From Armatimonadota bacterium (GTDB taxonomy: Bacteria > Armatimonadota > UBA5829 > DSUL01), in assembly GCA_025998755.1 (NCBI GenBank), contig AP024674.1, forward strand, positions 1,936,162-2,000,161: 64,000 nucleotides of DNA. Reading direction: 5' to 3'. The notes under the pieces are model-generated. The model was not told the origin of the DNA and ran no database searches. It saw nothing but the letters and a program-made list of their open reading frames with translations. The position numbers were made by a program, and so were the translations under genes. Of the stretch, positions 13,539 through 59,325 are shown piece by piece. Numbering within the stretch: position 1 is the stretch's first letter; each line of letters starts with the position of its first letter.

Positions 13539-13614
13539 TGGCAGGCCCTGCCGGATTCGAACCGACGACTTCTGGTTTTGGAGACCAGCGCTCTACCAGC
13601 TGAGCTAAGGGCCT
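13539..13614 (-). tRNA. tRNA-Trp (anticodon CCA)
   Basis: Acceptor stem AGGCCCT/AGGGCCT; anticodon loop cuCCAaa; encoded CCA 3' end; T-loop GGTTCGAATCC. Confidence 0.85.
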
Positions 13615-13690
13615 GCGACTCTCCGTGGAGAGAACCTGCGCCCGGCAGACGGATGCGCCGGAGGCAGCGCGCCCGGATGAACGCGGCAAG

Positions 13691-13822
13691 CTACTTCGCC
13701 TCCCGGTGCACAGTATGTTTTCGGCACACCGGGCAATGCTTCTTAAGTTCCAGCCGCTCCGTCTGCTTGCGGCGATTCTTGGTGGTCGCATAGTTGCGCG
13801 CCCGGCACTCCGTGCACGCCAT
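13691..13822 (-). CDS. rpmG: 50S ribosomal protein L33
   Basis: [43 protein letters not shown] (43 aa, two CxxC). Below the track's 60-aa cutoff. Confidence 0.8.
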
Positions 13823-13929
13823 CGTTATGACCACCCTGATATCTGTCGCCAACGTTGTCCTCCCGACAACAGGGAATCGCTCCGCCGCCGCGCCGCAGGC
13901 CGGCGGCGGAGCAACTCAATCCCTGAACA

Positions 13930-15132
<1,203 letters not shown>

Positions 15133-15249
15133 CTCCTCTACGATCCTCCAGAAAAAGATGTCCGGGAGCAGCCCGCCCCCGCGGATTCTTTCCAGAACAA
15201 GATGGCTGCTGGACGGCCCAACCCGGCGCGTGGTGCAGAAAAATGAAAA

Positions 15250-15321
15250 AGCCCACGACGGGATTCGGACCCGTGACCTCCTCTTTACCAAAGAGGTGCG
15301 CTACCCCTGCGCCACGTGGGC
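15250..15321 (-). tRNA. tRNA-Thr (anticodon GGT)
   Basis: GCCCACG acceptor stem, GCGCAGGGGTAGCGC D-arm, loop cuuGGUaa, T-loop GGTCCGAATCC. Confidence 0.8.
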
Positions 15322-15411
15322 ATTCTTTCCGCAACCCGGCGCCGGCCCGCGGCCGCCGCAGGCTCCCGGTGCCTCGACGGGGCAGCCTGGAACGCCTGCA
15401 TTTTGACAATC

Positions 15412-15494
15412 TGGGGGGAAGAGGATTCGAACCTCTGTAGGCGTTCGCCGGCAGATTTACAGTCTGCTCCCTTTGGCCGCTCGGGCATCCCCCC
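15412..15494 (-). tRNA. tRNA-Tyr (anticodon GTA)
   Basis: GGGGGAUGCCCGAGCGGCCAAAGGG...cuGUAaa, long variable arm, T-loop GGTTCGAATCC, encoded CCA. Confidence 0.8.
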
Positions 15495-15651
15495 GCAACA
15501 GTCACTGCGCCCATGGCAGGAGCTGCCGCCCCGGCGCAGCCCTGCCGTACAGGGCAACGCCGCGCACGGCGCATTCTAGCGGAATCGCGCCGCTTCCTGC
15601 AACCTCCGCGCACGAGCGTGGGCGCGGACGGCCTCCAAAAAATAGAGTGAG

Positions 15652-15723
15652 AGCCGACGAAGGGAATCGAACCCCCAACCGGCGGTTTACAAAACCGCTG
15701 CTCTACCATTGAGCTACGTCGGC
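15652..15723 (-). tRNA. tRNA-Thr (anticodon TGT)
   Basis: GCCGACGUAGCUCAAUGGUAGAGC...uuUGUaa, T-loop GGTTCGATTCC. Confidence 0.8.
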
Positions 15724-37500: not shown

Positions 37501-38866
37501 TGGTCTGAGTCCGGACTTCGCACGTTCCCGCTTCCAGGAGGCGCGCCATGCGGGTCTGGCTCTGGAGGCGGAAGGCCGCTGGATGACCCCCGAGGCGCTA
37601 GAGGCCGCAGTGCGCATGTCCCGAGGGATCAGGCGCAGAGAGGCGCGGCCGGTACCGCTGGAGTACTTCCAGCAGTTCGTCCTGGCGTGGCAGCACACTC
37701 TCCCGGTAGACCGCCTTCACGGCAGGGAGGGAACGCTGGAGATCCTGGAGCAGCTGGCAGGATGCTGTCTGCCTGCCAGACTCTGGGAGCCGGAGGTTCT
37801 TGCCCGGCGCGTGGAGGGCTACCAACCCGAATGGCTGGACTGGCTGCTGGGAGCCGGCCTTGTGCTCTGGCGCGGCGTTCCGGGAGCAGGCCGACCCGGA
37901 GATCTTGCGCTGCTGCCCAGAGGACTGGAGCGCCTGCCGCTGACCGTACGGGAGCCCGACGCTCCGCCGGAGGGTTCCTTTGAATGCTCCGTGCTGGAGA
38001 CTCTGCGCGAACGCGGCGCAAGCTTTTTGGTGGATCTGGGGCTTGCGCTGAGAACAGACACCCGCAAGATCGAGAAGACGTTAATGGATCTGGCCTGGGC
38101 GGGTCTGGTTACCCACGACTCTTTCGCTCCGGTGCGCGGTAATCAGCCGGCGCCGGACATCCATCGGGAGGCTCAGCGGGCGCACGGTTCTCCTCGCCAT
38201 CGTTACCAGCAGCTCAAACGGTTGCGTCCCGCGTTGAAGCTGGCTGCGCCGGGGCGCTGGCAGGCACTGGATGCATCGCAGACCGTGCTGGACGAGGAAA
38301 CGGTGGAGTTACTTGCCCGTCTTCTGCTGGAGCGCTACGGGGTGGCGGCGCGGGACATCGCTCACCTTGCCGGCATCCCGGCCCCGTGGGTGAGTCTTTA
38401 CCGCGCTCTGGAACGGATGGAGCTGGCGGGCGAGGTGGAAAGGGGATATTTCGTGGAAGATCTGGGTGGCGCTCAGTTTGCTCTGCCGGAAGCTATGCAG
38501 GCGCTGAAAGGCGCCTCGACAGGTGATGCCGCGGTGGTTCTTAACACCTGCGACCCGGCGCTGGTCACCGCCCTCCCCTGCGCGCGGCGGCCCGGCAACT
38601 ATGTTGTTCTGCTGAAGGGAAAGCCTGCGCTGATTCTGGAATCCGCTGCGAAAAGGCTGCTGCCCGTGGGGTCCGAAGCCGGGGCACTGAAATGTCTCCC
38701 GTCCTTGCGTCACGTCCTGGCATCGCCCTGGCCCCTGCGTCCCATCCGCCGCTTGGAGGTTATCCTGTGGGGTGACGCCGAGATCCACGGGCATCCGGTG
38801 GAGAGCGCCCTGAGGTCTCACGGTTTCCAGCGCACACCCAGGGGAATGCTGCTGGAGGCAGGCTGA
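34535..38866 (+). CDS. lhr: ATP-dependent helicase Lhr (full-length large helicase-related protein)
   Basis: 1443 aa; LILAPTGSGKTLAAFLAG Walker A, DEIH, ELGID, QRVGRAGH; long Lhr C-terminal extension. Start possibly at 34577 (MPDEQDPLDGFHPATAGWFRRAL). Confidence 0.85.
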   Translation: MGYNPGRSRGPDMVMPDEQDPLDGFHPATAGWFRRALGQPTPAQAMGWPPIRAGENTLILAPTGSGKTLAAFLAGLDHLFQKGLEGSLPKGVSLLYISPLKALNYDIERNLRHPLGGIAQEMRRMGLEPPEIRTAVRTGDTPSRERARMARRPPHILITTPESLNLILCSRAAAMLSGVRQVIVDEIHSLASNKRGAFLSVLLERLEDLTGRSFSRVGLSATQRPLEEVARFLGGYDSRGYQRPVRIVDAGARKKLDVAVDTAVADFRTMETGELWPSLEGKLLREVERRRSSIIFANTRGAVERLSRELNEMAGERLVEPHHGSISATRRRETEERLKRGELRAVVATASLELGIDMGAVELVCQVGSPKSVAAGLQRVGRAGHLAGAESVGRIFATSPVDLLESAILAAGMLESEVEPTRIVSNPLDVLAQQIAAMCVHGPVDVEGIFNTVRRSACFHNLSSEAFHRTLEMVAGRMGKGLPARVSLDRVNGRVLPLPGTLRAVVAGGGVIPDTGQFPVYLSGTRTSIGELDEEFVFEAREGDAFRLGVSTWRIEKIEADRIFVRPSPGSPAKAPFWRGEQVSRPPATGEAIGRFLAETEDLKGLEEIRDFVQQRTPCTPEAARSLAQFIHRQREKGALPTHRRIVVEFYRDAIGEGRMVVITPYGSRVHQALRIALTGMLQDETGAAPESMAGDEGVLIRLPSEEGCSAATLRKLTPERFRELLRRGLMRSALFGLRFRQNAARALLMPPRQPGRRSPLWLQRLKAKDLLQMVRGIPDFPVVLETTRECLEEQMDAALTERLLAGLQSGEVELKEVHSAAPSPFASALEFQLQMEFMYVWDRPVGAAALEAGPAGHQATPLTTGRALDGRAIERLREEAQALSSRSRARNAAELAETLRRLGDLSAHEAAERSASGDLSLLQELTATGTVVALEICGEERFVLAEEAAEWRAAVRDPGASGVFWNRAAARHIAASPGCRPEEFASRYGLSPDFARSRFQEARHAGLALEAEGRWMTPEALEAAVRMSRGIRRREARPVPLEYFQQFVLAWQHTLPVDRLHGREGTLEILEQLAGCCLPARLWEPEVLARRVEGYQPEWLDWLLGAGLVLWRGVPGAGRPGDLALLPRGLERLPLTVREPDAPPEGSFECSVLETLRERGASFLVDLGLALRTDTRKIEKTLMDLAWAGLVTHDSFAPVRGNQPAPDIHREAQRAHGSPRHRYQQLKRLRPALKLAAPGRWQALDASQTVLDEETVELLARLLLERYGVAARDIAHLAGIPAPWVSLYRALERMELAGEVERGYFVEDLGGAQFALPEAMQALKGASTGDAAVVLNTCDPALVTALPCARRPGNYVVLLKGKPALILESAAKRLLPVGSEAGALKCLPSLRHVLASPWPLRPIRRLEVILWGDAEIHGHPVESALRSHGFQRTPRGMLLEAG

Positions 38867-38913: not shown

Positions 38914-39966
38914 TTGGAGTTCAAACCGGACTGGGAACAGGCTATTAGGCGATTTGAGGCATGGTATGCCTTCGAGGAGTCGGACCGGCCCGTTATGATG
39001 GTCAGCGCTCCGAAGGCGCCCCGTCAGGCTCCTCCCGCTCCTGGAGACCTCCTGCGGCGCTGGACGGACCCGGAATACCTCATTGCCCGTCACGAGGCGG
39101 CCTTCCGTTCCACACACTTTGCCGGAGAATCCTATCCGCTCTGCTGGCCCAACCTCGGACCGGGAATCGCCGGCGCGTTTGCCGGCTGCGAACCCGTCTT
39201 CGACGAGACGACCATGTGGCTCCAGCCGCTGGACCGCCCCCTCTCCGCAATCCATCCAGTCTGGAACGGGGACAACCCCTGGTGGAAGATAACTCTGGAA
39301 CTGACCCGCGCTGCAGCGGAAGCAGGCAAAGGCCGCTGGGTGACCGCCGTCACGGATCTGGGTGGAGTCACGGACGTGCTGGCCGGCATGCGGCATTCCG
39401 ACCGACTGTGCATCGAGATGCTGGAGGAGCCGGAAGAGGTCCTGCGGGTGCGTGACGGCCTGCTGGAGATCTGGAAACGGGCGTACAGTGCGCTGGCGGA
39501 CATCACACAGCCGGCCAACGGAGGCACCACAGGCTGGCTGGGAGCGTTCAGCGTCCACCGAACATATCCTCTCCAGTGCGACTTCTGCTGCATGATCGGA
39601 CCAGACATGTTCGAGCGATTCGTTCTGCCGGAGCTGCGGGAGCTATGCCGGTGGCTGGACCGGTCGGTCTATCATCTGGATGGACCCGGCGCGGTGAAGC
39701 ATCTGGACGCACTGCTTGGCATCCCCGAGCTCAACGCCATCCAGTGGGTTCAGGGCGCGGGACAGGCTCCGACGATCGAGTGGGTGGACTTGCTCAAACG
39801 CATTCTGGATGCCGGGAAGTCCGTCTTCGCCTATGCATCGCCGCAGGAAGTGCGGCCCCTGTTGGAAAGGCTTGGGGCTCGGGGCGTGGCGCTGGCGGTG
39901 GGAGCTTCCACCCCTGAGGAAGCGGATTATCTGGTGCGGATGTCGGGCGAATGGAGCCGCGCCTGA
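38914..39966 (+). CDS. uroporphyrinogen-decarboxylase-like (URO-D fold) protein, function unknown
   Basis: 350 aa, composition and hydropathy of a TIM-barrel enzyme; resembles URO-D/MtaA-like family proteins; no cofactor motif identified by eye. Confidence 0.45.
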   Translation: MEFKPDWEQAIRRFEAWYAFEESDRPVMMVSAPKAPRQAPPAPGDLLRRWTDPEYLIARHEAAFRSTHFAGESYPLCWPNLGPGIAGAFAGCEPVFDETTMWLQPLDRPLSAIHPVWNGDNPWWKITLELTRAAAEAGKGRWVTAVTDLGGVTDVLAGMRHSDRLCIEMLEEPEEVLRVRDGLLEIWKRAYSALADITQPANGGTTGWLGAFSVHRTYPLQCDFCCMIGPDMFERFVLPELRELCRWLDRSVYHLDGPGAVKHLDALLGIPELNAIQWVQGAGQAPTIEWVDLLKRILDAGKSVFAYASPQEVRPLLERLGARGVALAVGASTPEEADYLVRMSGEWSRA

Positions 39967-40733
39967 CGGGCGGTTCGGATTTCAACCCCGCTGCCGCGGA
40001 GGCAAAGCCAAACTCCGCCGTCGCGTCCTGTATTGCAGACCGTTTCGGCCACACCTTCCAGGGAGCGTCTCAGGCCGTAGTCGGCCCACGTGGCACGGGA
40101 GCGTCCGCTGGAGAGAACGGCCACGGCGGGAGCCAGTCCTGGAGGAACGCCGGACGGCTCGCGGGAAGCCGCATAGCTGAGCGCCAGCGCATGCGGGCCA
40201 AATGTGGCCAGAAAGCGGCCGCAACCGGATGACAGGCGGTCCACCAGGGCCACCCTGACCTGTTTCCAGCGCACTGCCAGACACTCCACCTGTCCACCGG
40301 AGCCGTAAGCCTCCATCTCCAGGCCGTCCCGCAGCCGCATCTTCATCCCCGGCCTCAGGGGTTGCCAATCGGAGCCTGAAAGAAGCCCGGCCGGATCGCC
40401 GGCGCACAGAAGCGCCTCGGAGGGCATCTCTTCCAGAAGCTGCGCCACTCCGGAGGCTGCGTCCGGTTCCGTCCGGGTGAGGATGATCGCATCCAGCCGG
40501 TTGACTCCCAGCCGCGCCAGCGCCCGTAGCGCAGCGGTGCCCGGCCGGCTCCGCGGATCGGCGGACCCGCAGTTCACCACCACCGTGCTTCCGCTCGGAG
40601 TGTGGATAATCCAGCACTGTCCGGGGCCGGCGTCCAGGCACTCTAGAACCAGCCCTCCCCTCAAGGGAGCCGTGGCCCACGCCCACAGCCAGACCAGAAG
40701 AATGAAGATGATGACGAGAAATGGCAGCCTCAC
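39927..40733 (-). CDS. comEC: ComEC C-terminal metallo-beta-lactamase-fold module as a separate ORF (degenerate metal site)
   Basis: GTG start overlaps the upstream ComEC ORF stop (GTGA). TM helix then MBL-like LVLECLDAGPGQCWIIHT, but the HxHxDH position reads ILTRTEPD. Confidence 0.6.
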   Translation of the reverse strand: MRLPFLVIIFILLVWLWAWATAPLRGGLVLECLDAGPGQCWIIHTPSGSTVVVNCGSADPRSRPGTAALRALARLGVNRLDAIILTRTEPDAASGVAQLLEEMPSEALLCAGDPAGLLSGSDWQPLRPGMKMRLRDGLEMEAYGSGGQVECLAVRWKQVRVALVDRLSSGCGRFLATFGPHALALSYAASREPSGVPPGLAPAVAVLSSGRSRATWADYGLRRSLEGVAETVCNTGRDGGVWLCLRGSGVEIRTARQARLHSPDIRTR

Positions 40734-42367
40734 CGGGAATGCTCCGGAGTCTTCGCCCTCTGACGAGTTCCTCGCGGGTCAGCCGTTTGCAGGAGCCACC
40801 AGACCGCTGCCATCAGGGCGTACCAACTCGCAATGGCGGGCAGGCCAGGCGTGGGCCAGTGAATTTCTGCCATCGGCAGACTTCCAAGAGCGTCCACCAC
40901 GGCGGCAGTGGCCGAAGCCAACCACTCCACTGTGCGCGAAAGCAGCCAACCTGCTCCCGGTATCCAGAACAGGAAAGCCAGAGCCACTCCCGCCGCGAAC
41001 AGCGTCTCCGCCAGCAACGCAACCGCCAGATTGGCGGGCAGGCTGACCAGGGAAACGCGGTTGAAATAGTAGGCCAGTATTGGCGCCGTCGCCAGCGTGG
41101 CCGCAACCGTCACCAGCGCCACATCGCGGAAGTGCTCCACAATGAATCTTCCCACCAGTGTGACTGGCGGAGTCTGACCGGAGGGGGAATCATCCCGGGC
41201 TTTCAGACGGGACAGAGAACTCAGCCGAGGTACGAAGGCGATGATGGATCCCACCGCTGCGAAGCTCAGTTGAAAGCCCACGTTGGCGATGGCCAGGGGA
41301 TCCAACAGCAGAATGATGAACACAGTGCCAAACAGCACGCTGACCATGTCGGCCGGCCTTCCAATAAGCAGGGCCATAAGATACAGCGTTGCGCCCACGC
41401 CCGCCCGCATGATGGACGGTTTGCCCCCCACCATGAGCACATAGAAGATCACCAGTGCGATGACCAGCAGCAGTGAGAACGCGCGAGGCGCTCCCAGCGG
41501 AAAGAGGAGCCACCGCCAGAAGATCAGCACGATGAGTCCGCAGTTGAAACCGGACGCCGCCAGCAGATGCAGAGTCCCGCTGCGGCGGAAATTCTCCAGC
41601 AGATCTTCCGGCACCATCGAGTAGCTGCCAAGCAGCATCCCGGAGACCAGCCCCGCTTCACGAGCAGGGAGCCGTTCCAGAAAAAGCCTGTTCAACCACC
41701 TCCTCGCTCGGAGGGCAGCGGCGACGGCCGGATTGCCCGCCCGCGATGTCAGGACCTTCACAGAGGCGGGCGCAGCACGGAGAACGCAGAAAATGCCCTG
41801 ACGGGCGAGATACGCCCGGTAAGAGAAACCTCCGGGCTCCCGGGGCCCGAAAGGCAAGACAAGTTGGCCGCCCACCCGCACCCTGCGGCCGTAGTCCGGC
41901 AGGGCGCTCTCCCGGCCTGCCGGAACCGGCAGCACCACCTGCACGGCTCCGTCCACCCGGCTTTCCTGCCGCTCGCTCCAGAGGCTTTCGGCCATAAGCA
42001 CGAACGTGGCGCGGCGGCGGGAGAGTTCGGGCTCCGAGGAGACCCACCCCTCCAACACCACTGTGCCTATCCGTCCGGCGTGCAGTGAAGGGTCTGCCGG
42101 GCCCGGTAACCGCACCGTGGCAGCTCTCCCGAACCCCAGCAGAGCCATGGCCGCCAGCAGGATGGTCCAGCCCTGATGCCCTCTTGCGAACGCAGCAACC
42201 GCGGCGACAGCCGCGATGCAACCCGCCACCGCAGCCGGGAACGGTGTGGCGGCGGACCAGAGCGAGAGCGCACATCCGCCTCCGTAGGCGAGCGCCACAG
42301 GCACAACGGGACGGCTTTTCAGGCTCTCCGGCAAAGGGATGTCTTCAGGTCCCTGTCTCCGGCCCAC
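40730..42367 (-). CDS. comEC: ComEC/Rec2 DNA-internalisation channel, N-terminal part (DUF4131 + competence domain)
   Basis: 545 aa, many TM helices; GTLHLLAASGFNCGLIVLIF, MRAGVGATLYLMALLIGRP, typical of ComEC. Confidence 0.8.
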   Translation of the reverse strand: MGRRQGPEDIPLPESLKSRPVVPVALAYGGGCALSLWSAATPFPAAVAGCIAAVAAVAAFARGHQGWTILLAAMALLGFGRAATVRLPGPADPSLHAGRIGTVVLEGWVSSEPELSRRRATFVLMAESLWSERQESRVDGAVQVVLPVPAGRESALPDYGRRVRVGGQLVLPFGPREPGGFSYRAYLARQGIFCVLRAAPASVKVLTSRAGNPAVAAALRARRWLNRLFLERLPAREAGLVSGMLLGSYSMVPEDLLENFRRSGTLHLLAASGFNCGLIVLIFWRWLLFPLGAPRAFSLLLVIALVIFYVLMVGGKPSIMRAGVGATLYLMALLIGRPADMVSVLFGTVFIILLLDPLAIANVGFQLSFAAVGSIIAFVPRLSSLSRLKARDDSPSGQTPPVTLVGRFIVEHFRDVALVTVAATLATAPILAYYFNRVSLVSLPANLAVALLAETLFAAGVALAFLFWIPGAGWLLSRTVEWLASATAAVVDALGSLPMAEIHWPTPGLPAIASWYALMAAVWWLLQTADPRGTRQRAKTPEHSR

Positions 42368-50494: not shown

Positions 50495-50668
50495 GGCAGT
50501 CTCCGTTGCGGAACGCGCAGGAAAGAGGGTTCGCAGGCTCGGATTCCCGCGCGGCAGATTTCCATCATTCTACAACATTCCGCAAGAGTCTGCAATCACC
50601 ACGCCCTCTCTCATGTACAGGGGGAACCAGGGCAGTTCGCCGCGCCGTTTCCCAACATTGGAGAGGTT

Positions 50669-51697
50669 ATGAGCGACGCCATCATCGAGATGACGCCAGC
50701 CGGCCTTTGCTGCCCGGATGGCGATTTTCACATAGATCCCTGGCTTCCAGTGGCGCGCGCGGTGATCACTCACGCGCATGCGGATCACGCGAGGTCTGGA
50801 ATGGGCGCATACCTTTGTTCCCGCCCTTCGGAGCCTCTGCTTCGCGCCAGGCTGGGGCCAGACGTCCGCATCGAGAGCAGGGATTACGGGGAGGTCGTGA
50901 CACTTGGGGCGGTCAGAGTTTCCCTGCATCCCGCCGGTCACGTAGCAGGATCGTCCCAGATCCGCATCGAGCGCCGGGGACAGGTGGCTGTGGCCGCTGG
51001 TGATTACCGCCTTCACCCGGATGCCACCTGTTCGCCGTTCGAGCCCCTCCGCTGTCATCACTTCGTGACGGAGTCCACGTTCGGGTTGCCCGTTTACCGC
51101 TGGCGGCCACCTCGGGAAGTATTCGAGGAGATAAACGCCTGGTGGCGGAGCAACCGCGATGCGGGACGGGTGAGCGTGCTGTTCGCCTACGCCCTGGGGA
51201 AAGCGCAAAGGGTGCTGGCCGGCGTCGACCCCTCTATTGGGCCCATTGTCTGCCACGGAGCGGTGGCCCGGATGAACCGGGCGTGTCTGGAGGCCGGGGT
51301 GCGCCTGCCACCGTTCAAACTGGTGTCTGAGATTCAACGTGACGAGCTCGCGGGAGCATTGGTCTTAGCGCCTCCCTCGGCGGCCGGCAGCCCCTGGATG
51401 CGCCGGTTCGGGGAGGCGTCCACTGCCATGGCTTCGGGATGGATGCAGATCCGCGGGGCGCGGCGCAGGAGAGCGGTGGACCGGGGGTTCGTCCTGAGCG
51501 ACCACGCGGACTGGGACGGACTGAATCAGGCGGTGCGACTGAGCGGGGCGGACAGGGTCTGGGTCACCCACGGACACAGTGAAGCCTTGGCGCGATGGCT
51601 GCGTGAGCTGGGCCTGGATGCCACGGCCATTCAGACCCGGTTCGAAGGCGAAACCGCCGAAGAGGGTCTGCGGGACGAGGGAGAGGAAACGCCTTGA
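50669..51697 (+). CDS. ligase-associated DNA damage-response exonuclease (MBL/beta-CASP fold)
   Basis: ATG at 50669 with GGAGAGG RBS; ITHAHADHARSG (HxHxDH); beta-CASP-like C-terminal region VLSDHADWDGL...VWVTHGH. The track ORF 49733.. is a spurious 5' extension. Confidence 0.8.
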   Translation: MSDAIIEMTPAGLCCPDGDFHIDPWLPVARAVITHAHADHARSGMGAYLCSRPSEPLLRARLGPDVRIESRDYGEVVTLGAVRVSLHPAGHVAGSSQIRIERRGQVAVAAGDYRLHPDATCSPFEPLRCHHFVTESTFGLPVYRWRPPREVFEEINAWWRSNRDAGRVSVLFAYALGKAQRVLAGVDPSIGPIVCHGAVARMNRACLEAGVRLPPFKLVSEIQRDELAGALVLAPPSAAGSPWMRRFGEASTAMASGWMQIRGARRRRAVDRGFVLSDHADWDGLNQAVRLSGADRVWVTHGHSEALARWLRELGLDATAIQTRFEGETAEEGLRDEGEETP

Positions 51698-52806
51698 GCT
51701 ACTTGCTGACAGGTCTGGCGATAGCCGGAGGGCTGGCGGCGCTGACGGCGGGAGCGGAGCTGCTGGTGCGCGGCGCTTCCCGGTTGGCACGCGCCGCCGG
51801 TGTCTCTCCGCTGGTTATCGGCCTGACCGTGGTGGCCGTCGGCACCAGCGCTCCGGAGATCGCGGTCACTGTGGGAGCCGCCGTCACTGGAGAAGCGGAG
51901 ATCGCGCTGGGCAACGTCGTGGGGAGCAACATCTTCAACGTGCTCGCCGTGCTGGGTCTTTCGGCTCTGGCGTCCCCGCTGGTGGTACAGAGGCGGATTG
52001 TGCGAAGCGAGGTCCCCGTCATGGTGCTGCTGAGTTTCGGCGTGGCCGCGCTGTGTCTGGACGGCTCCCTGGGACGCCTGGAAGGAGCTGCACTGGCTGC
52101 CTGCCTGGCAGGTTATCTGTGGTGGATGGTACGGAGGGCTCGGGCGGAAGGAAACGGGCCGGAGGTCGCGCTCGACGGCGCAAAGTCGCCGGGCCTCAAC
52201 ATTGTGCGGGATGTGGTGCTGACGGCCGCTGGGCTGCTTCTGCTCCCCGCCGGCGCGCGCTTGCTGGTGAGCGGCGCATCCGAGATCGCCCGGGCGCTGG
52301 GGGCGACGGAACTGGTCATCGGTCTGACCATTGTGGCTGCAGGGACATCCCTGCCCGAGGCTGCCACGTCCGTGATGGCCACACTCCGGGGCGAGCGGGA
52401 TATCGCTGTGGGCAATGTGGTGGGCAGCAACATTTTCAACCTGCTGGGGGTGCTGGGTCTGGCCGGCCTGGTGTCCCCTTCTCCCGCAAGCGTCCCCGAA
52501 GCCGCACTGCGATTCGACATTCCGGTCATGCTGGCATGCGCGGTGGCATGCCTGCCGGTGGCATACACGGGCTACCGCATAGACCGCTGGGAAGGAGCGC
52601 TTTTCGTCGCGTACTATTTGGCCTATCTGACCTTCCTGGCATTGGACGCCACTGACCATTCCGCCGCCGGACCGTACGCGCGTGTCATGCTGGCGTTCGT
52701 GCTTCCGATTACCGCCGTGACCCTCGGCACCTTGGCCGTCCGAACGTGGACGGCTCGCCGCTTCCGGGCACGGGCGAGGGCCAGCGTAAGAGAGGCGGGG
52801 CGATGA
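51694..52806 (+). CDS. CaCA-family Na+/Ca2+ exchanger (YrbG-like)
   Basis: Two alpha-repeat motifs GNVVGSNIFNVL / GNVVGSNIFNLL, ~10 TM helices; ATGA overlap with the exonuclease stop and with the ligase start. Confidence 0.85.
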   Translation: MSYLLTGLAIAGGLAALTAGAELLVRGASRLARAAGVSPLVIGLTVVAVGTSAPEIAVTVGAAVTGEAEIALGNVVGSNIFNVLAVLGLSALASPLVVQRRIVRSEVPVMVLLSFGVAALCLDGSLGRLEGAALAACLAGYLWWMVRRARAEGNGPEVALDGAKSPGLNIVRDVVLTAAGLLLLPAGARLLVSGASEIARALGATELVIGLTIVAAGTSLPEAATSVMATLRGERDIAVGNVVGSNIFNLLGVLGLAGLVSPSPASVPEAALRFDIPVMLACAVACLPVAYTGYRIDRWEGALFVAYYLAYLTFLALDATDHSAAGPYARVMLAFVLPITAVTLGTLAVRTWTARRFRARARASVREAGR

Positions 52807-54407
52807 GGCGGTTTCAGGAGCTGTTCGCGGCGCTGGACAGCACCAATCGCACCGGCGGGAAGCAGGCGGCGTTGGTCGAGTATTTCCGGGAAGCGCCGCC
52901 GGAGGACGCCGCGTGGGCGGTCTTCTTCCTGACCGGCCGCAAGCTGCGGCAGGCTGTCACATCCACGGAGCTTCGCCGCCTTGCGGCCGAAGAGGCCGGC
53001 ATTCCGGAATGGCTGTTCGAGGAGTGCTATGACGCTGTGGGCGACCTGGCGGAGACCGTGGCGTTGGCGCTGCCGCCGGGTGGAGAAGACAGGCCACTGC
53101 CGCCTCTGCACGTCTGGGTGCGCGAGCGTCTGCTGCCGCTCCGGGAGATGGATGATAACGGGAGACGCGCCGTTCTGATCCAGAGCTGGAAGGAGCTGAG
53201 CCCGCAGGGGCGGTTCGTTTGGAACAAGCTGATCACTGGAGGAATGCGTCTGGGAGTTTCGCGGCAACTGGTTGTGCGAGCGCTCTCGGAAGTGAGCGGC
53301 CTTGCGCCGGGCATCATTGCCCATCGCCTGATGGGGGAATGGGAACCGAGTGCTGAGTTCTTCCGGGAACTGCTGTCTCCGGATACGGCATCTTCAGCCC
53401 TCAGTCAGCCCTACCCTTTCTTTCTGGCGCATCCTCTGGAAGATGCTGCAGACACCCTGGGCGAGCCCGGCGACTGGCAGGCCGAGTGGAAATGGGACGG
53501 CATCCGGGCGCAGATCGTCCGGCGGGACGGGGAGACGTTCATCTGGTCGCGCGGGGAGGAACTAATGACCGACCGTTTTCCGGAATTGGCCGGCGCCGCG
53601 GAGGGCTTGCCGGATGGCACTGTGCTGGACGGGGAGATCCTCCCGTGGAAAGACGGTCACGTGCTGCCGTTCGCCGTTCTGCAGACCCGCATCGGGCGCA
53701 AAAGCCTGACCCGCGCCGTCCTGCAGCACGCTCCGGTGATGTTCATGGCGTTCGATCTGCTTGAGACGGAAGGTCGCGACGTCCGCGAAAATCCTCTGAA
53801 ATGGCGCAGGCGCGCGCTGGAGGAGATCTTGCAGGGGGTGGAGGCAGACCGGATCACCCTGTCCCCGGTGATCTCATTTGCGGACTGGGAGGAGCTCGAG
53901 CAGATCCGCTCCACCAGCAGGGATCGCGGGGTGGAAGGGGTCATGCTGAAGCGGCTGGACTCCGCCTACGGCGTGGGACGCCCCCGGGGCGACTGGTGGA
54001 AGTGGAAGATCGAGCCGCTGAGTGTGGATTGCGTTCTGATGTATGCTCAGCGCGGACACGGAAAGCGCGCGAGTCTCTACACGGACTACACCTTCGGAGT
54101 CTGGGACGGCGACAGGCTGGTGCCGTTCGCGAAAGCTTACTCCGGCTTGACGGACGAAGAGATCCGCGAGGTGGACGCCTTTGTGCGCCGAAACACGGTG
54201 GAGCGCTTCGGGCCGGTACGCTCCGTCCGGCCGGAGCTGGTTTTCGAGCTGGCGTTCGAGGGGATCCAGCGGTCCACTCGCCATCGCTCCGGTGTGGCCG
54301 TGCGTTTTCCGCGGATGGTCCGGTGGCGGCGCGACAAACGTCCCGCGGACGCCGACACCCTGCAGACGGTCCTGGCTCTCCTGGAGCGCACGGAGGCCAG
54401 CCGGTGA
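52803..54407 (+). CDS. ATP-dependent DNA ligase (ligase-associated damage-response cluster type)
   Basis: Adenylation motif I AEWKWDGIRAQ (KxDG); 534 aa; OB-fold C-terminal region. Start MRRFQELF at 52803. Confidence 0.85.
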   Translation: MRRFQELFAALDSTNRTGGKQAALVEYFREAPPEDAAWAVFFLTGRKLRQAVTSTELRRLAAEEAGIPEWLFEECYDAVGDLAETVALALPPGGEDRPLPPLHVWVRERLLPLREMDDNGRRAVLIQSWKELSPQGRFVWNKLITGGMRLGVSRQLVVRALSEVSGLAPGIIAHRLMGEWEPSAEFFRELLSPDTASSALSQPYPFFLAHPLEDAADTLGEPGDWQAEWKWDGIRAQIVRRDGETFIWSRGEELMTDRFPELAGAAEGLPDGTVLDGEILPWKDGHVLPFAVLQTRIGRKSLTRAVLQHAPVMFMAFDLLETEGRDVRENPLKWRRRALEEILQGVEADRITLSPVISFADWEELEQIRSTSRDRGVEGVMLKRLDSAYGVGRPRGDWWKWKIEPLSVDCVLMYAQRGHGKRASLYTDYTFGVWDGDRLVPFAKAYSGLTDEEIREVDAFVRRNTVERFGPVRSVRPELVFELAFEGIQRSTRHRSGVAVRFPRMVRWRRDKRPADADTLQTVLALLERTEASR

Positions 54408-56848
54408 GACCGGGGCGCATCCGGCTGGAAAAATGGTTCCGCGCCAGGGGATGGGAGCCGCTCCCGCATCAGCGGAAGACCTGGGACGCCTATCTTGCCG
54501 GGGAAAGCGGCCTGTTGCACTCGCCCACGGGTTCCGGCAAGACGATGGCTGTCTGGGGTGGGCCGCTCATCGAGGCGGCGGAGAGCCAGGCCGAGGAAGG
54601 CGGAATGCGAGTGCTATGGGTGACCCCTCTGAGGGCGCTGGCCGCCGACCTGGCCCAGGCGCTGCAGGAAGCTGCAGATGGCACGGGATGCGGCTGGCGA
54701 GTGGAGCTTCGCACCGGGGATACGCCGGGCTCCGCGCGGGCCCGCCAGATGCGAAGCGCTCCTCAAGCCCTGGTCACCACGCCGGAGAGCCTTTCGCTGC
54801 TTTTGTCCTATCCTGAGAGCAGGAAGCTGTTTTCCGGGCTTTGGCTTGTGGCTGTGGACGAATGGCATGAGCTGCTGGGCTCCCGGCGCGGCGTGCTGAC
54901 GGAGCTTGCTCTGGCTCGCCTGCGAACCCTGTGCCCTGCTCTTCGAACCTGGGGGATGTCCGCGACCATCGGCAATCTGGATGAGGCTGTGGAGGCCCTC
55001 GGCTGCGGAGAGACGGCCAGGATCATCCGGGGAGATCTCAGGCGCGACGTGGTGGTTGACGCCCTTATCCCCGGTGAGATGGAGCGTTTCCCGTGGGCGG
55101 GGCATCTGGGCGCCAGGCTGCTTCCTCAGGTGCTGGAGGCGGTGGAGGAGGCCGGCAGTTGCCTGATCTTCACCAACACGCGCGCGCAAGCCGAGACCTG
55201 GTTCCGGATGCTGGTGGAGGCGCGCCCGGACTTTGCAGACCGCATAGGGCTACACCACGGGTCGCTGGACCGGGAGGGACGGGAGGAAGTGGAGAGGGGT
55301 CTGAAGGAAGGGCGGCTGAAGTGCGTAGTATGCACCTCCAGTCTGGACCTGGGAGTAGACTTCTCCCCTGTGGAACGGGTGCTACAGATCGGGTCGCCCC
55401 GGGGAGTGGCGAGGCTGCTGCAACGGGCTGGGCGAAGCGGACATGACCCGGCCCGATCCAGCCGCATCACCTGCGTCCCCACCCACGCCTTTGAGCTGGT
55501 GGAGACGGCGGCCGCGCGGGACGCCGTCCGCGAGGGAGCCATCGAGCCCCGCCCGCCTATCCGGCGCCCCCTGGACGTGCTGGCCCAGCACCTGGTGACT
55601 TCGGCTCTCGGTGGAGGTTTCCTCGCAGAGGAGATGTACCGCGAGGTGCGTTCCGCCCGCGCCTATCGCGACCTGCCCCGTGAGGACTGGGAGTGGACGC
55701 TGGACTTCGTCGCCCGGGGAGGAAAAGCCCTGCGCAACTATCCGGAATACCGGCGATTGGAAGAGACGGACGGGTTTTACACCGTGACGGACCGGCGCAT
55801 CGCAAAGATGCACCGGCTGTCGGTCGGGACGATCGTCAGCGACGCCGAGCTGGTGGTCCGTTATGCCGGAGGCGCAAAGCTGGGCAGTGTGGAGGAATCC
55901 TTCCTTTCGCGGATGCGCCCCGGTGACCGCTTCGTCTTCGCCGGGCGGTTGCTGGAGCTGGTGCGGGTGCGGGATGGCGAGGCTCTCGTGCGGCGCACGA
56001 CCGGGAGCGCGACCGCGATCCCCCGCTGGATGGGCGGGCGCATGCCCTTGTCCTCCGAACTGGCCCGCGCTGTCCGCAGAAGGCTGGAGCAGGCGAGGGA
56101 TGGCCTTTACGAGGGTCCGGAGATGGAGGCGGTCCGGCCCGTCCTGGAGCTTCAGAAAAGCATCTCGAAGATACCGGGCTCCAGTGAGTTGCTGATCGAG
56201 CGGCTGCGTTCGCGCGAGGGGCATCACCTGTTTCTGTATCCGTTCGAGGGGCGCCTGGCTCACGAAGGGCTTGCAGCTCTGCTGGCGTACCGGATCTCCC
56301 GACTCCAGTCTGTCACATTCACGCTTGCGGTCAACGACTACGGCATCGAGATGCTTTCCGCCAGAGAGGCTCCGCTGGACCAGGCGCTGAAGGAAGGCTT
56401 GCTGTCGCCGGAGCGTTTGGATGAGGATATCGCCGCCAGCCTGAACTGTGTGGAGATGGCGCGGCGGCAATTCCGGGAGATCGCACGGGTGGCGGGGCTG
56501 GTGTTTCAGGGGTATCCCGGCAGTCCGAAAAAGCTGAAGCAGCTCCAGGCCTCCAGCGGGCTGCTGTACGACGTGTTCGCGCGCTACGACCCGGAAAACC
56601 TGCTGCTGCGGCAGGCGCGGGAGGAGGTGCTGGACCGTCAGCTCGAGCGTGAACGTATGCGGCAGGCGCTGGAGCGAATGGAGCGCTCAACGGTGACGGT
56701 GATGGACCTGGACCGCCCTTCCCCTCTGGGCTTCCCTCTGATGGTGGAACGTCTTCGCGAGAAGCTGTCGTCCGAGAAGCTGGAGGAGCGCATCCGCAGG
56801 ATGCAAGTGCAGTTTTCCGCTCCGCGGCGCAGAAGGAAGGCGGCGTGA
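54404..56848 (+). CDS. Lhr-Core-type DEXH-box helicase (ligase-associated DNA damage-response helicase)
   Basis: GTG start overlapping the ligase stop (GTGA); LLHSPTGSGKTMAVW, DEWHEL, HHGSL, QRAGRSGH; ~814 aa (Lhr-Core size). Confidence 0.85.
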   Translation: MRPGRIRLEKWFRARGWEPLPHQRKTWDAYLAGESGLLHSPTGSGKTMAVWGGPLIEAAESQAEEGGMRVLWVTPLRALAADLAQALQEAADGTGCGWRVELRTGDTPGSARARQMRSAPQALVTTPESLSLLLSYPESRKLFSGLWLVAVDEWHELLGSRRGVLTELALARLRTLCPALRTWGMSATIGNLDEAVEALGCGETARIIRGDLRRDVVVDALIPGEMERFPWAGHLGARLLPQVLEAVEEAGSCLIFTNTRAQAETWFRMLVEARPDFADRIGLHHGSLDREGREEVERGLKEGRLKCVVCTSSLDLGVDFSPVERVLQIGSPRGVARLLQRAGRSGHDPARSSRITCVPTHAFELVETAAARDAVREGAIEPRPPIRRPLDVLAQHLVTSALGGGFLAEEMYREVRSARAYRDLPREDWEWTLDFVARGGKALRNYPEYRRLEETDGFYTVTDRRIAKMHRLSVGTIVSDAELVVRYAGGAKLGSVEESFLSRMRPGDRFVFAGRLLELVRVRDGEALVRRTTGSATAIPRWMGGRMPLSSELARAVRRRLEQARDGLYEGPEMEAVRPVLELQKSISKIPGSSELLIERLRSREGHHLFLYPFEGRLAHEGLAALLAYRISRLQSVTFTLAVNDYGIEMLSAREAPLDQALKEGLLSPERLDEDIAASLNCVEMARRQFREIARVAGLVFQGYPGSPKKLKQLQASSGLLYDVFARYDPENLLLRQAREEVLDRQLERERMRQALERMERSTVTVMDLDRPSPLGFPLMVERLREKLSSEKLEERIRRMQVQFSAPRRRRKAA

Positions 56849-57504
56849 AAGGCGCGTGTTCTCTAAGCGTGCGCGGGCAGGAGCTTGTCCTTTTGCCCGA
56901 CAAGGCACTGTGGTGGCCGCAGCAGGAAGCGCTCGTCATTGCCGATCCCCATCTGGGAAAAGCGGCGGCGCTGCGCGCCGCGCGAATGCCCCTGCCCGGC
57001 GGGAGCACGAGTGAAGACCTGGGCCGCCTGTCCGCGATGCTGGACGCTACAGGGGCCAGAAGGCTTATTGTCCTGGGGGATCTGTTGCACGCACGCGAAG
57101 GGCGCGCCGTCCGCACGCTGGAGGTTGTATCGCGATGGAGAGAGCGGCATTGCGGACTTGAGATGACGCTGGTTCGGGGTAATCATGACTGCCGAGCCGG
57201 TGATCCCCCTGCGGAGTGGAACATTCAGTGTGTGGACGAGCCTTTCAAGCTCGGTCCCTTCCGTTTCTGCCACGCGCCGCACGAGGACGGGGGAGACGGC
57301 TACTGGATTGCCGGACATCTGCATCCGGCCGTTTTGCTGCGTGGGCCTGCACGGCTTAGGGAGAGACTGCCGTGCTTCCTTTTCGGGCCAGCCGGGGCGA
57401 TTCTGCCCTCATTCGGATCGCTTACAGGGGCGGCGCTGGTGCGCCCACGCGAGGGAGATCGCATCTTCGTAACAGCCGATGGAGCAGTGCTGGAGGTGAA
57501 ATGA
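56845..57504 (+). CDS. pdeM: ligase-associated metallophosphoesterase nuclease (PdeM/MPE)
   Basis: ADPHLGK, LGDLLH, GNHD calcineurin-like motifs; GTGA overlap with the helicase stop. Confidence 0.8.
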   Translation: MKGACSLSVRGQELVLLPDKALWWPQQEALVIADPHLGKAAALRAARMPLPGGSTSEDLGRLSAMLDATGARRLIVLGDLLHAREGRAVRTLEVVSRWRERHCGLEMTLVRGNHDCRAGDPPAEWNIQCVDEPFKLGPFRFCHAPHEDGGDGYWIAGHLHPAVLLRGPARLRERLPCFLFGPAGAILPSFGSLTGAALVRPREGDRIFVTADGAVLEVK

Positions 57505-58562
57505 GGTCACGGAGGCCTGGAAGTCGGGTCCGGCCTGGAAGGAAGCGAGTACGGAGCCGGTCCGCTGCCGTATGGGCTTGCTACATCTCCGTTGCTCTGC
57601 TAGCGTTATGCTCCTTCGCATTTGCTGCGCGTCCGTTCGGGCTGGCAGCCGTTACCGTGCTGCCCGTGTGGTTCTGGTGGCTGATCGGTCTGGGATTGGT
57701 GGCCGCCGCCTGGCAGGCGGTAGGCCGGGCTGCTCTGCCGCTATTTGCCCTTTGGATGGTATATCTTGTGGCGTTTGCCGAGGAGCCCCGCAGCCTCGGC
57801 CGGACCCTCCTGCCGGCACCCCGCCCGGAGAAGCTGATCCGCGTGGTGTCTCTGAACTGTGCAGTCGCCAACCACGATGCCGCCGCGGAGGCGCTGCTAA
57901 GCAACCCTGATGTGGTGCTTTATCAGGAGTCGCCCGGCCCTCGCGGGCTGCAGGAGGTTTCGAGACTGCTCTTCGGGAGGAGCATAGTCCGGGTGGGGGA
58001 ATTCGGCAATGCGATCCTGGCCCGGGGCAGCATGGTGGATTCAAAGCAGCCACTCGCGGTGAGGAGCACCCTGACGCGCGCTAGGGTGCGCCTGGAGGCC
58101 GGGCCGGAAGTGGAGCTCGTGTCGCTACGGTTGACTCCTGCGGAGACCCGTTTGGACTACTGGAATCCTGTCTGCTGGCTGGAGCATTCCCGCAACCGCC
58201 GCGCCCGCGACGCCGAGATGGCGGCTGTGGCAGCCTATCTCAGCACCGTGCCCCCGGACGTTCCGGTGATTCTGGGTGGAGACTTCAACGTTCCGCAGGG
58301 CGATGGCATCTTTCGCCGGCTTCGTCCGCGGCTACGGGATGCGTTCCGTGAGGGAGGAAGGGGATGGGGAAACACCTTTCTGAACAGCTTCCCAATACTG
58401 CGCATAGACCAGGTCTGGACCAGCGCCCACTTCCGGGCGATCTCCGTGCGCGCAAAGATGACCGCGCATTCGGACCACCGGATGGTGATATGCGAGCTGG
58501 AAACGGTCAGGGCCGGGGAAGCGGGGCGCGTTGCTCCGCCCGCAGCTCGCGCGCCAGACTGA
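57501..58562 (+). CDS. membrane-anchored endonuclease/exonuclease/phosphatase (EEP) family protein
   Basis: ATG overlaps the PdeM stop (ATGA). Three N-terminal TM helices; EEP motifs VVSLNCAV, ILGGDFNV, SDHRMVICE. Confidence 0.7.
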   Translation: MRSRRPGSRVRPGRKRVRSRSAAVWACYISVALLALCSFAFAARPFGLAAVTVLPVWFWWLIGLGLVAAAWQAVGRAALPLFALWMVYLVAFAEEPRSLGRTLLPAPRPEKLIRVVSLNCAVANHDAAAEALLSNPDVVLYQESPGPRGLQEVSRLLFGRSIVRVGEFGNAILARGSMVDSKQPLAVRSTLTRARVRLEAGPEVELVSLRLTPAETRLDYWNPVCWLEHSRNRRARDAEMAAVAAYLSTVPPDVPVILGGDFNVPQGDGIFRRLRPRLRDAFREGGRGWGNTFLNSFPILRIDQVWTSAHFRAISVRAKMTAHSDHRMVICELETVRAGEAGRVAPPAARAPD

Positions 58563-59325
58563 ACAGTTCGCGGAACATCCGCAGGATGACCCGTAGCGAT
58601 GCCCCCGATTGCTTTCCCGCAACCCTGGGATAGTGTGTGACAGGCACTTCCTTGATTCGCGCTCCCCGTTTCCGGAGCCGGATCAGCAACTCGGCACTGA
58701 TGAGAGCCCCTTCACTTTTCAGGGGCAAGTCCCGGACCATTTCCGAGCGAAGCAGTTTGAACGCGCAGTCTATGTCCCGGACCTTTAGCCCGAAGAGAAG
58801 ACGGATCATGCCCCGGTAGAGCGCCGCATTGATCGAGCGGTGCGCCGGGTCCCGCCTTCTGCGGCGGTAGCCGATGACCGCGTCCGCTCCCTTCAGAGCC
58901 TCAGCAACGAGAAGACCCAGCTCCGAGAGGTCAAACTGCCGGTCCGCGTCTGTGAAGAACACCCACTCGCAGCGCGCCTCATGCAGCCCGGTCTTCAATG
59001 CGCCCCCGTATCCCCGGTTGCGAGGGTGAGATACGCAGCGGACTTCACCGTGCCTCCGGGCAAGCCTTTCGGCCTCCCGCCAGGTGCCGTCAGTGCTGCC
59101 ATCGTCCACGACGATGATCTCGAAACGGCGCGCGAAGGCGGGCAGAACCTCCAACGCGCTGCGGACCAGCGGAGCGATGTTCTCTTCTTCATTGTGGGCA
59201 GGGAAAAACACGGAGAGCTCGCTCAGAACAGCCTGGCGGGACGCCGGATCCGCGTCCCGCACCAGCACCGCGTCCATCACGATCCCCTCGTCCTGCCGCT
59301 GCCCGCGAATCAGCCGGAACGCCAT
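58507..59325 (-). CDS. family 2 glycosyltransferase (polyprenyl-phosphate sugar transferase-like)
   Basis: LSVFFPAHNEEENI, IIVVDDGSTDGT, FFTDAD (DxD) GT2 motifs. 3' end overlaps the EEP gene convergently by ~56 nt. Confidence 0.8.
   Translation of the reverse strand: MAFRLIRGQRQDEGIVMDAVLVRDADPASRQAVLSELSVFFPAHNEEENIAPLVRSALEVLPAFARRFEIIVVDDGSTDGTWREAERLARRHGEVRCVSHPRNRGYGGALKTGLHEARCEWVFFTDADRQFDLSELGLLVAEALKGADAVIGYRRRRRDPAHRSINAALYRGMIRLLFGLKVRDIDCAFKLLRSEMVRDLPLKSEGALISAELLIRLRKRGARIKEVPVTHYPRVAGKQSGASLRVILRMFRELFSLARELRAEQRAPLPRP

Follow-up and report, generated by a model that had tools for sequence, protein, structure and literature searches.

Does a DNA repair operon that carries genes for a cation antiporter and a membrane-anchored phosphoesterase encode an enlarged repair machine, or is it a known repair cluster with two unrelated genes lodged in it? 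The question is raised by six open reading frames, all on the plus strand, that occupy positions 50669 to 58562 of the 64,000-nucleotide stretch of DNA analyzed here (the window); we confirmed their coordinates and order (Table 1). The original prediction, made from the sequence alone, supposed a planctomycete source, which is wrong: the DNA belongs to the Armatimonadota MAG KatS3mg024. All five of the protein sequences checked (of six) have exact matches in public collections, the starts of Exo, CaCA, the ligase, and Lhr being those of GenBank entries BCW98812-98815 and the start of EEP being that of the deposited protein KatS3mg024_1644.

Table 1. Genes, junctions, and conserved upstream block of the six-gene locus, in window positions.
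Feature	Positions	Strand	Evidence
Gene 1, ligase-associated MBL/beta-CASP exonuclease (Exo), 342 aa	50669..51697	+	TIGR04122; HAHADH; identical to BCW98812
Gene 2, YrbG-type CaCA Ca2+/Na+ (cation) antiporter, 370 aa, TTG start	51694..52806	+	TIGR00367, PF01699; identical to BCW98813
Gene 3, ATP-dependent DNA ligase, ligase-associated damage-response type, 534 aa	52803..54407	+	TIGR04120; KWDG motif I
Gene 4, Lhr-Core DExH helicase, 814 aa	54404..56848	+	TIGR04121; Pfam domains
Gene 5, PdeM/MPE binuclear metallophosphoesterase, 219 aa	56845..57504	+	TIGR04123
Gene 6, membrane-anchored EEP-family phosphoesterase, 353 aa	57501..58562	+	PF03372; 100% identical to KatS3mg024_1644
Exo/CaCA junction, TTGA (TTG start on TGA stop)	51694..51697	+	NTGA overlap kept in L093, L095, L096
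CaCA/ligase junction, ATGA	52803..52806	+	Sequence; overlap kept in relatives
Ligase/Lhr-Core junction, GTGA	54404..54407	+	Sequence; overlap kept in relatives
Lhr-Core/PdeM junction, GTGA	56845..56848	+	Sequence; overlap kept in relatives
PdeM/EEP junction, ATGA	57501..57504	+	Sequence; overlap kept in relatives
Conserved block, candidate promoter/operator	50527..50596		Four-lineage alignment; within the divergent intergenic region (174 nt) that precedes Exo

Four of the genes form the complete canonical set that had been proposed, and HMM searches bear this out, with each protein above the equivalog cut-off of its NCBIfam model: Exo scores 476 bits against TIGR04122 (cut-off of 325), the ligase 673 bits against TIGR04120 (cut-off of 400) and 759 bits against NF006701, Lhr-Core 1128 bits against TIGR04121 (cut-off of 850), and PdeM 225 bits against TIGR04123 (cut-off of 150). 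The signature motifs can be read in the translations (HAHADH in Exo, KWDG in the ligase, DEWH in Lhr-Core, and DPH, GD [as GDLLH], and GNHD in PdeM), and Pfam domains are assigned along the ligase (N, adenylation, and OB) and Lhr-Core (DEAD, Helicase_C, WH_Lhr, and DEAD_assoc). The GenBank version of PdeM has 203 residues, 16 codons fewer than the 219-residue form; because the TIGR04123 alignment begins at residue 8 of the longer form, the overlapping GTG start is supported.

These four genes lie together on one strand between 50669 and 57504, in the order Exo-(CaCA)-Lig-Lhr-PdeM. [quoted passage not shown] 2020; PMC7826289). Published biochemical work on the P. putida proteins describes Lhr-Core as a helicase of 3'-to-5' polarity and MPE as an endonuclease that requires Mn2+ and cuts single-strand DNA; Exo is a putative beta-CASP exonuclease, and sealing of the product falls to the ATP-dependent ligase. 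The Armatimonadota genes share with that cluster their single strand, their order, their catalytic motifs, and equivalog-level scores for all four proteins, and differ in that CaCA separates Exo from Lig and EEP is appended after MPE. PADLOC defense models matched none of the other five proteins and recovered only the helicase, through Lhr-like defense helicases (SngC, BrxHI, and DpdJ) at no more than 215 bits, against 1128 for TIGR04121, and we do not assign the locus to an anti-phage defense system.

The two additional genes are where the original prediction put them and belong to the families that it named. Gene 2 reaches 264 bits against TIGR00367 (cut-off of 180), and PF01699 aligns to two stretches of it (224 bits). 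Its alpha-repeats, GTSAPE...GNVVGSNIFN and GTSLPE...GNVVGSNIFN, are both intact and resemble those of YrbG- and NCX_Mj-type exchangers, in which the Na_Ca_ex repeat occurs twice and bears the signatures GTSxPE and GNxxGSNxxN. GenBank names the product of BCW98813 "sodium:calcium antiporter." Its 222.6 bits with NF008005, the model for the Escherichia coli YrbG equivalog, fall short of the cut-off of 432, making it a family member and not that equivalog. An additional hydrophobic segment and an Arg-rich tail lie at its C terminus; its length and C-terminal extension are common to homologues of 58-60% identity in many phyla.

Gene 6 matches PF03372 with 61.6 bits (cut-off of 24.5). Its Arg-rich N terminus and three hydrophobic segments (residues 22-43, 48-72, and 79-93; nt 57564-57779) precede a basic catalytic domain (residues 112-335, nt 57834-58505; median pI, ~9.6) whose catalytic residues are intact, E143, D261, N263, D303, D325, and H326 being invariant and N119 nearly so in an alignment of homologues. 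On which side of the membrane this domain lies is answered differently by different evidence. Hydropathy and charge analysis of the apolar segments fits an N-in/C-out arrangement, the homologue alignment shows the third segment flanked at one end by basic residues and at the opposite end by an EE motif, and an AF2 model of the homologue P0085 has three separate helices. When AF2 is applied to the window protein (pLDDT of 91.4), residues 56-92, comprising segments 2b and 3, come out as a single helix, in which case the domain would remain cytoplasmic. We consider an extracytoplasmic domain the more likely, in view of the hydropathy, the charges, and the P0085 model, with the window model pointing the other way.

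The nearest known systems to gene 6 include Tdp2 (tyrosyl-DNA phosphodiesterase 2, a DNA-end repair enzyme) and the EEP repair enzymes of the ExoIII/APE1 type. Tdp2 is among the top Foldseek matches (E ~1e-13), but this similarity is no better than that to ExoIII, sphingomyelinase, nocturnin, or sugar phosphatases and marks no specific Tdp2 affinity. The label "membrane nuclease" previously given to the protein thus claims too much, in that the EEP fold does not separate nucleases from lipid or sugar phosphoesterases and the domain is more likely extracytoplasmic. Hundreds of stand-alone homologues have 35-50% identity to it, and several of those at 40-50% carry the JGI labels VanJ or YafD, a likeness that comes through these labels and the shared plan of three hydrophobic segments and an EEP domain (PF03372 with an N-terminal transmembrane anchor). 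VanJ is reportedly a membrane protein whose active site, in the C-terminal part, lies outside the cytoplasm. The Armatimonadota gene differs from VanJ-like genes in lacking a glycopeptide resistance context and, uniquely, in following pdeM with a 4-nt overlap.

How tightly are the six genes bound together? All five of the predicted 4-nt overlaps are real, and four have the spelling originally given, the one at 51694 being TTGA and not ATGA. A GGAG-like Shine-Dalgarno sequence precedes every overlapping start, inside the preceding gene (5/5 junctions), and elsewhere in the window a 4-nt overlap is possible in only ~4 of 36 same-strand neighbor pairs (a background of ~36 pairs that rests on crude gene calls), compared with 5/5 here. 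Such overlaps permit translational coupling and do not prove it, so that "obligate co-translation" was an overstatement. Within the run we found no convincing internal promoter or terminator, the counts being no higher than in shuffled sequence. It is most improbable that the genes are several independent cistrons, with incidental compaction producing the overlaps and internal promoters serving CaCA and/or EEP: a weak sigma-70-like site inside pdeM (57158-57186; the consensus may not be that of Armatimonadota promoters) and seven terminator-like hairpins (5.6 expected from shuffles) would speak for it, whereas the single strand, the zero intergenic bases at five junctions, the Shine-Dalgarno sequences within upstream genes, and the persistence of this layout in four lineages speak against it. 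Most likely, to judge from sequence features, the six genes are carried on one transcript from a promoter upstream of 50669, with translation coupled across the NTGA overlaps. The conserved block in front of Exo (Table 1) is largely invariant among four lineages although synonymous sites are near saturation between them; no consensus sigma-70 site was called within it.

The same layout, with all five overlaps, recurs in three other lineages, where the NTGA overlap is kept at 15/15 junctions. Divergence from these relatives is considerable (dS of 0.3-1.5), and omega is 0.08-0.25 across all six genes; by this measure, the CaCA and EEP genes are functional, with purifying selection acting on both. 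Both are also present in the syntenic clusters of close relatives, so that the original prediction is not refuted on the ground set for it, a chance insertion with no homologues in such clusters. The six-gene order with overlaps is confined, however, to relatives whose EEP and CaCA have at least 71% and at least 77% identity, respectively, to those of the window, and the three relatives together with the source make up one narrow clade of hot-spring Armatimonadota. Because the flanks are equally syntenic in these relatives (prepilin/DUF1559, Dabb, and GFO_IDH genes upstream; GT2, HisF-like, MBL, CheB-like, and T2SSE genes downstream), the fact that the arrangement is conserved does little to tell the readings apart.

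That limitation bears on the possibility that the genes constitute a shared stress regulon, in which one stress (e.g., heat, oxidative, or desiccation stress, as in hot-spring mats) demands repair of DNA breaks as well as homeostasis of the envelope or of cations, and in which the additional proteins are co-regulated with the repair enzymes and make no contact with DNA. Overlaps and an upstream block kept across lineages with a dS of ~1, similar purifying selection on all six genes, and internal promoter and terminator signals at background level are what such a regulon would show. We nonetheless regard it as rather unlikely, since no regulator or known operator was identified for the operon, the flanks are as syntenic as the operon itself, and the association is absent outside the single clade.

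This absence was consistent across surveys. Neither CaCA nor EEP was found within 10 kb of the most similar ligases in 80 species loci (0/80 by tblastn, even at E<1); Exo directly adjoins Lig in 62 of the 67 loci that have both on one strand, and 16 other species loci have all four core genes, ordered as here except that CaCA is missing (0/16 with either extra gene). Conversely, Exo, Lig, PdeM, or CaCA was present near none of the next-closest EEP homologues (at most 50% identity) in 71 metagenome loci, the sole match being an Lhr-like helicase of 28% identity on the opposite strand in one locus (L119), and the repair association was also absent from 3 additional contigs with outgroup EEP homologues. 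The neighbors of these outgroup EEP genes vary, with oxidoreductases, a PF04185 phosphoesterase, and, in one species only, an SNF2 helicase. The association is likewise absent at the next-closest CaCA homologues (58-60% identity; 0/3 loci), which adjoin an Mrp antiporter operon, stand alone, or are in tandem with another CaCA gene, settings unlike a DNA repair operon. In other lineages, unrelated inserts (P450, DUF4240, and unknown ORFs) occupy the same junctions, which indicates that the operon tolerates passengers. The claim that the two genes are functionally wired into the repair module is therefore not upheld, the association being restricted to one narrow clade.

A membrane-coupled repair machine would nevertheless give both proteins a role: CaCA would tune the local concentration of Ca2+ or other divalent cations for a Ca2+-preferring Lhr-Core and a Mn2+-dependent MPE, EEP would be a membrane-tethered, Tdp2-like phosphodiesterase that cleans blocked DNA ends before ligation, and co-translational membrane insertion of both from the shared mRNA would bring the repair set to the membrane. 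Ca2+ is indeed the most effective in vitro cofactor of the E. coli and Mycobacterium smegmatis Lhr ATPases (EcoLhr and MsmLhr; PMC8053096), but an exporter would lower cytoplasmic Ca2+, not supply it. As for EEP, its basic domain, the Tdp2 match, and the cytoplasmic placement permitted by the window AF2 model agree with such a role, and in one unrelated lineage a LigD 3'-phosphoesterase-like (LigD_N-like) domain is fused to the N terminus of this EEP family. The Tdp2 match is shared with enzymes of other substrates, the topology favored above places the domain outside, and the fusion is limited, in a set of 1.84 billion representatives, to two clusters (at 50% identity), one of which matches LigD_N below the Pfam cut-off. 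YrbG-type exchangers, moreover, are ordinary housekeeping antiporters. A single P-type ATPase gene adjoining PdeM in one locus (L039) is served by a promoter of its own, and its product is not Ca specific. Even with the tight, conserved junctions in its favor, a repair machine that recurs in none of the 80, 71, and 3 loci or the 3 outgroup EEP contigs is quite improbable.

We therefore think it probable that the locus is the known Exo-Lig-Lhr-Core-MPE operon with two lineage-specific membrane protein passengers that act outside the DNA repair pathway, a reading that we also judge the most parsimonious. In one Armatimonadota clade, a YrbG-type antiporter gene would have been inserted between exo and lig, and an EEP phosphoesterase with a polytopic anchor, drawn from a widespread stand-alone family, would have been added after pdeM; the former would perform its usual cation exchange, and the latter would hydrolyze phosphoesters at the membrane, probably at its outer face. 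The identities of all six genes, the described four-gene cluster, the clade-limited recurrence, the lack of association elsewhere, the unrelated inserts at the same junctions in other lineages, and the evidence for an extracytoplasmic EEP domain favor the passenger reading. Against it stand the overlaps at 5/5 window junctions and 15/15 junctions of relatives at a dS of up to ~1.5, the position of CaCA in the middle of the operon and not at its edge, and the Ca2+ preference, Tdp2 match, LigD-like fusion, and window AF2 model discussed above. Packing so unusually tight and conserved suggests that co-expression of the six genes is selected for; nothing supports a functional tie of CaCA or EEP to DNA repair.

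Consistent with the view that no such module had been described, we found no account of an expanded repair cluster with CaCA or EEP in the literature searched. As the two genes have no link to repair outside this clade, their place in the operon is a modest curiosity of these Armatimonadota.

The core of the operon belongs to an operon type already described in the literature, Exo-Lig-Lhr-Core-MPE (MPE being PdeM). Exo, the ligase, Lhr-Core, and PdeM score 476, 673, 1128, and 225 bits against TIGR04122, TIGR04120, TIGR04121, and TIGR04123, respectively, so that all four canonical members exceed their NCBIfam equivalog cutoffs, and catalytic motifs are present in each. Gene 2 encodes a CaCA antiporter (264 bits to TIGR00367) with two PF01699 repeats and both alpha-repeat signatures intact. 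Gene 6 has PF03372 as its sole match (61.6 bits) and encodes an Arg-rich N terminus followed by three apolar segments and an EEP domain in which all catalytic residues are conserved. An anti-phage defense system was considered and rejected, as PADLOC models match nothing beyond a generic helicase.

Features of the window and of surveyed loci (window positions unless a locus is named)
Feature	Position	Strand	Description
tRNA cluster	13539-15723	-	Trp-CCA, Thr-GGT, Tyr-GTA, Thr-TGT
Full-length Lhr helicase	34535-38866	+	1443 aa
350-aa ORF	38914-39966		no Pfam match
268-aa ORF	39927-40733	-	no Pfam match
ComEC-like competence protein	40730-42367	-	545 aa; PF03772, DUF4131
Conserved block	50527-50596		divergent intergenic region, prepilin/DUF1559 gene to Exo
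Exo	50669-51697	+	TIGR04122
CaCA antiporter	51694-52806	+	TIGR00367, PF01699
Ligase	52803-54407	+	TIGR04120
Lhr-Core	54404-56848	+	TIGR04121
PdeM	56845-57504	+	TIGR04123
EEP	57501-58562	+	PF03372
GT2 glycosyltransferase	58507-59325	-	convergent with EEP
Exo-Lig insert	L032 6607-10001		opposite-strand cytochrome P450 and 575-aa ORF
Other insert loci	L074 11686-12345; L029 1916-3567; L035 4548-5868
LigD-EEP fusion P0085	L088 8001-9356		unrelated low-GC organism
P-type cation ATPase	L039 14873-17305		E1-E2 ATPase, Cation_ATPase_C; Aggregatilineales MAG; 106 nt 3' of PdeM

Gene calls, family scores, and our reading of the junctions bear out the six-gene, operon-like run that had been recognized from the sequence, including its coordinates and the 4-nt start/stop overlap at every junction; the one correction is at 51694, where the overlap is TTGA (a TTG start) and not ATGA. 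A GGAG-like motif precedes each start codon. The public collection holds exact copies of the five of six operon proteins that were looked up. The starts of Exo, CaCA, ligase, and Lhr agree with GenBank proteins BCW98812-98815, encoded on a 3.29-Mb Armatimonadota MAG contig, and that of EEP with the deposited 353-aa KatS3mg024_1644, so that the source is not a planctomycete; the deposited PdeM (203 aa) is 16 codons short of the window form, and alignment to TIGR04123 supports the overlapping GTG as the probable PdeM start. Product names in GenBank are misplaced, with Exo (BCW98812) named "DNA ligase-associated DEXH box helicase" and PdeM (BCW98816) "DEAD/DEAH box helicase." At their 3' ends, EEP and the convergent GT2 gene share 56 nt (58507-58562), an overlap that also measures 56 nt at the related locus L081 and 164 nt at L083-L085 and L090 and is missing at L082.

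All EEP homologues at 71 to 88% identity and CaCA homologues at 77 to 91% sit in the same six-gene arrangement, such that both genes are present in the syntenic clusters of close relatives, where their absence would have pointed to chance insertion. In three diverged relatives (L093, L095, and L096), with synonymous divergence from the window of 0.3 to 1.5, an NTGA overlap is kept at every junction, although start codons are not fixed (ATG, GTG, or TTG). Omega is 0.08 to 0.25 for all six genes, and, at this divergence, such values mark CaCA and EEP as functional genes under selection, as judged from codon comparisons. The same contigs are syntenic upstream (prepilin/DUF1559, Dabb, and GFO_IDH) and downstream (GT2, HisF-like, MBL, CheB-like, and T2SSE); the relatives thus form one narrow clade, and the conservation of the arrangement alone therefore tells little.

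A 4-nt overlap is possible in only 4 of about 36 same-strand neighbor pairs elsewhere in the window (a background resting on crude gene calls) versus 5 of 5 in the operon, and promoter-like and terminator-like sites within the six-gene region show no excess over shuffled expectation. Together, these two results make the six genes look like one tightly packed operon, from which we infer single transcription and translational coupling. Upstream of Exo, a block conserved in four lineages with near-saturated synonymous sites is largely invariant, and no known operator was recognized in it. A LexA/Cheo-box-like candidate (a GAAC...GTTC pair with 14-nt spacing) was rejected, as it is not conserved in L095 and L096. 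Co-regulation of the six genes under a common stress ranks second among the readings, after the accretion of passenger genes discussed below, and we regard it as unlikely.

To look outside the clade, species-representative genomes were scanned with the ligase, giving 80 loci from Chloroflexota, Acidobacteriota, Planctomycetota, Gemmatimonadota, Proteobacteria, and others. No CaCA or EEP match lies within 10 kb of any of the 80, down to a threshold as loose as an E value of <1; one of these loci, L025, consists of a 2-kb fragment that belongs to the operon's own clade. Exo lies directly next to Lig in 62 of 67 loci, all four repair genes are consecutive in 16, and gene content 3' of PdeM varies by locus. 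Where junctions between the repair genes are gapped, the gaps contain unrelated inserts, among them cytochrome P450, DUF4240, and ORFs without a Pfam match. In L032, the P450 gene and a further ORF separate Exo and Lig; in other lineages, DUF4240 lies between Lig and Lhr-Core and the ORFs without a Pfam match also lie inside the cluster. A P-type ATPase gene in L039 was considered as a second case of a cation transporter joined to the repair genes and rejected: it occurs once, is preceded by its own predicted promoter (TTGACG-N17-TACAAT), and has no Ca2+ assignment, its best NCBIfam matches falling below cutoff.

A metagenome scan with the EEP alignment yielded 71 loci with homologues at ≤50% identity, and in none of them do Exo, Lig, PdeM, or CaCA lie close by; the sole repair-gene match, to an Lhr-like helicase encoded on the opposite strand in one locus (L119), has 28% identity. 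Recurring neighbors are oxidoreductases, a PF04185 phosphoesterase, and an SNF2 helicase, the last being the only nucleic acid-related neighbor and confined to one species sampled eight times (copies 98 to 99% identical). Three further contigs with 36 to 48% homologues likewise have no repair genes near EEP. The closest outgroup CaCA genes (58 to 60%) adjoin an Mrp antiporter operon, are solitary, or stand in tandem with a second CaCA, with no repair genes beside them. CaCA and EEP are a lineage-specific elaboration of the operon, of which no description was found in the literature searched. The best-supported reading, which we hold to be somewhat more probable than not, is operon accretion, in which CaCA and EEP would be membrane-protein passengers added in one lineage.

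We hold a true membrane-coupled repair machine to be an unsupported and quite improbable reading. Across 44 aligned homologues, Arg and Lys are abundant in the EEP N terminus and in the loop that follows apolar segment 2; segment 3 is almost free of charge, and a conserved EE(P)RSL motif comes after it. This charge pattern fits an N-in protein with three spans and its catalytic domain outside. AF2 models disagree: residues 56 to 92 of the window EEP are drawn as one helix, whereas in the homologue P0085, with a deeper alignment, the helix is broken at the basic loop to give three separate helices. The experimental topology of VanJ reportedly agrees with an outside-facing EEP domain. In all, the EEP domain is probably extracytoplasmic, and a domain facing outside could not act on the chromosome.

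P0085 and also P0285 are fusions in which a LigD 3'-phosphoesterase-like domain precedes EEP at its N terminus. The P0085 fusion keeps all three apolar segments, and its modeled topology suggests that the membrane would separate the two domains; upstream of it, the opposite strand of its contig carries genes that include those for a CD-NTase and a Cap15-like effector (CBASS). As a Rosetta-stone link, the fusion is real in P0085 but was rejected: among 1.84 billion representatives, searched exhaustively, it occurs in just two 50%-identity clusters, the second with a subthreshold LigD_N score, and more than 140 of the best 150 matches are stand-alone proteins of roughly 220 to 385 residues.

Calcium is the most effective in vitro cofactor of the Escherichia coli and Mycobacterium smegmatis Lhr ATPases (PMC8053096). 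The strongest point for a functional link is the conserved overlaps, although these come from a single clade. Two points weaken a link through Ca2+: antiporters of the YrbG type serve ordinary housekeeping, and no other cluster surveyed holds a Ca transporter.

Elsewhere in the window, a full-length Lhr helicase (DEAD, Helicase_C, WH_Lhr, and DEAD_assoc domains plus the WH2/WH3/WH4 modules of the Lhr C-terminal domain) is encoded 12 kb upstream of the Lhr-Core operon, placing both Lhr forms close together in the genome. The 350-aa ORF lies just downstream of it. The stop of the ComEC-like gene shares 4 nt with the start of the 268-aa ORF, possibly its split-off C-terminal domain. An Rfam search of the window matched the four tRNAs only.

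[quoted passage not shown] If the membrane proteins join its pathway, they would be the first hint that it is tied to ion homeostasis or the membrane and would give a physiological context for the odd in vitro Ca2+ preference of Lhr helicases. On present evidence, the finding mainly means that a conserved repair operon tolerates the insertion of unrelated genes, and it cautions against inferring a functional link from close gene packing in one lineage.
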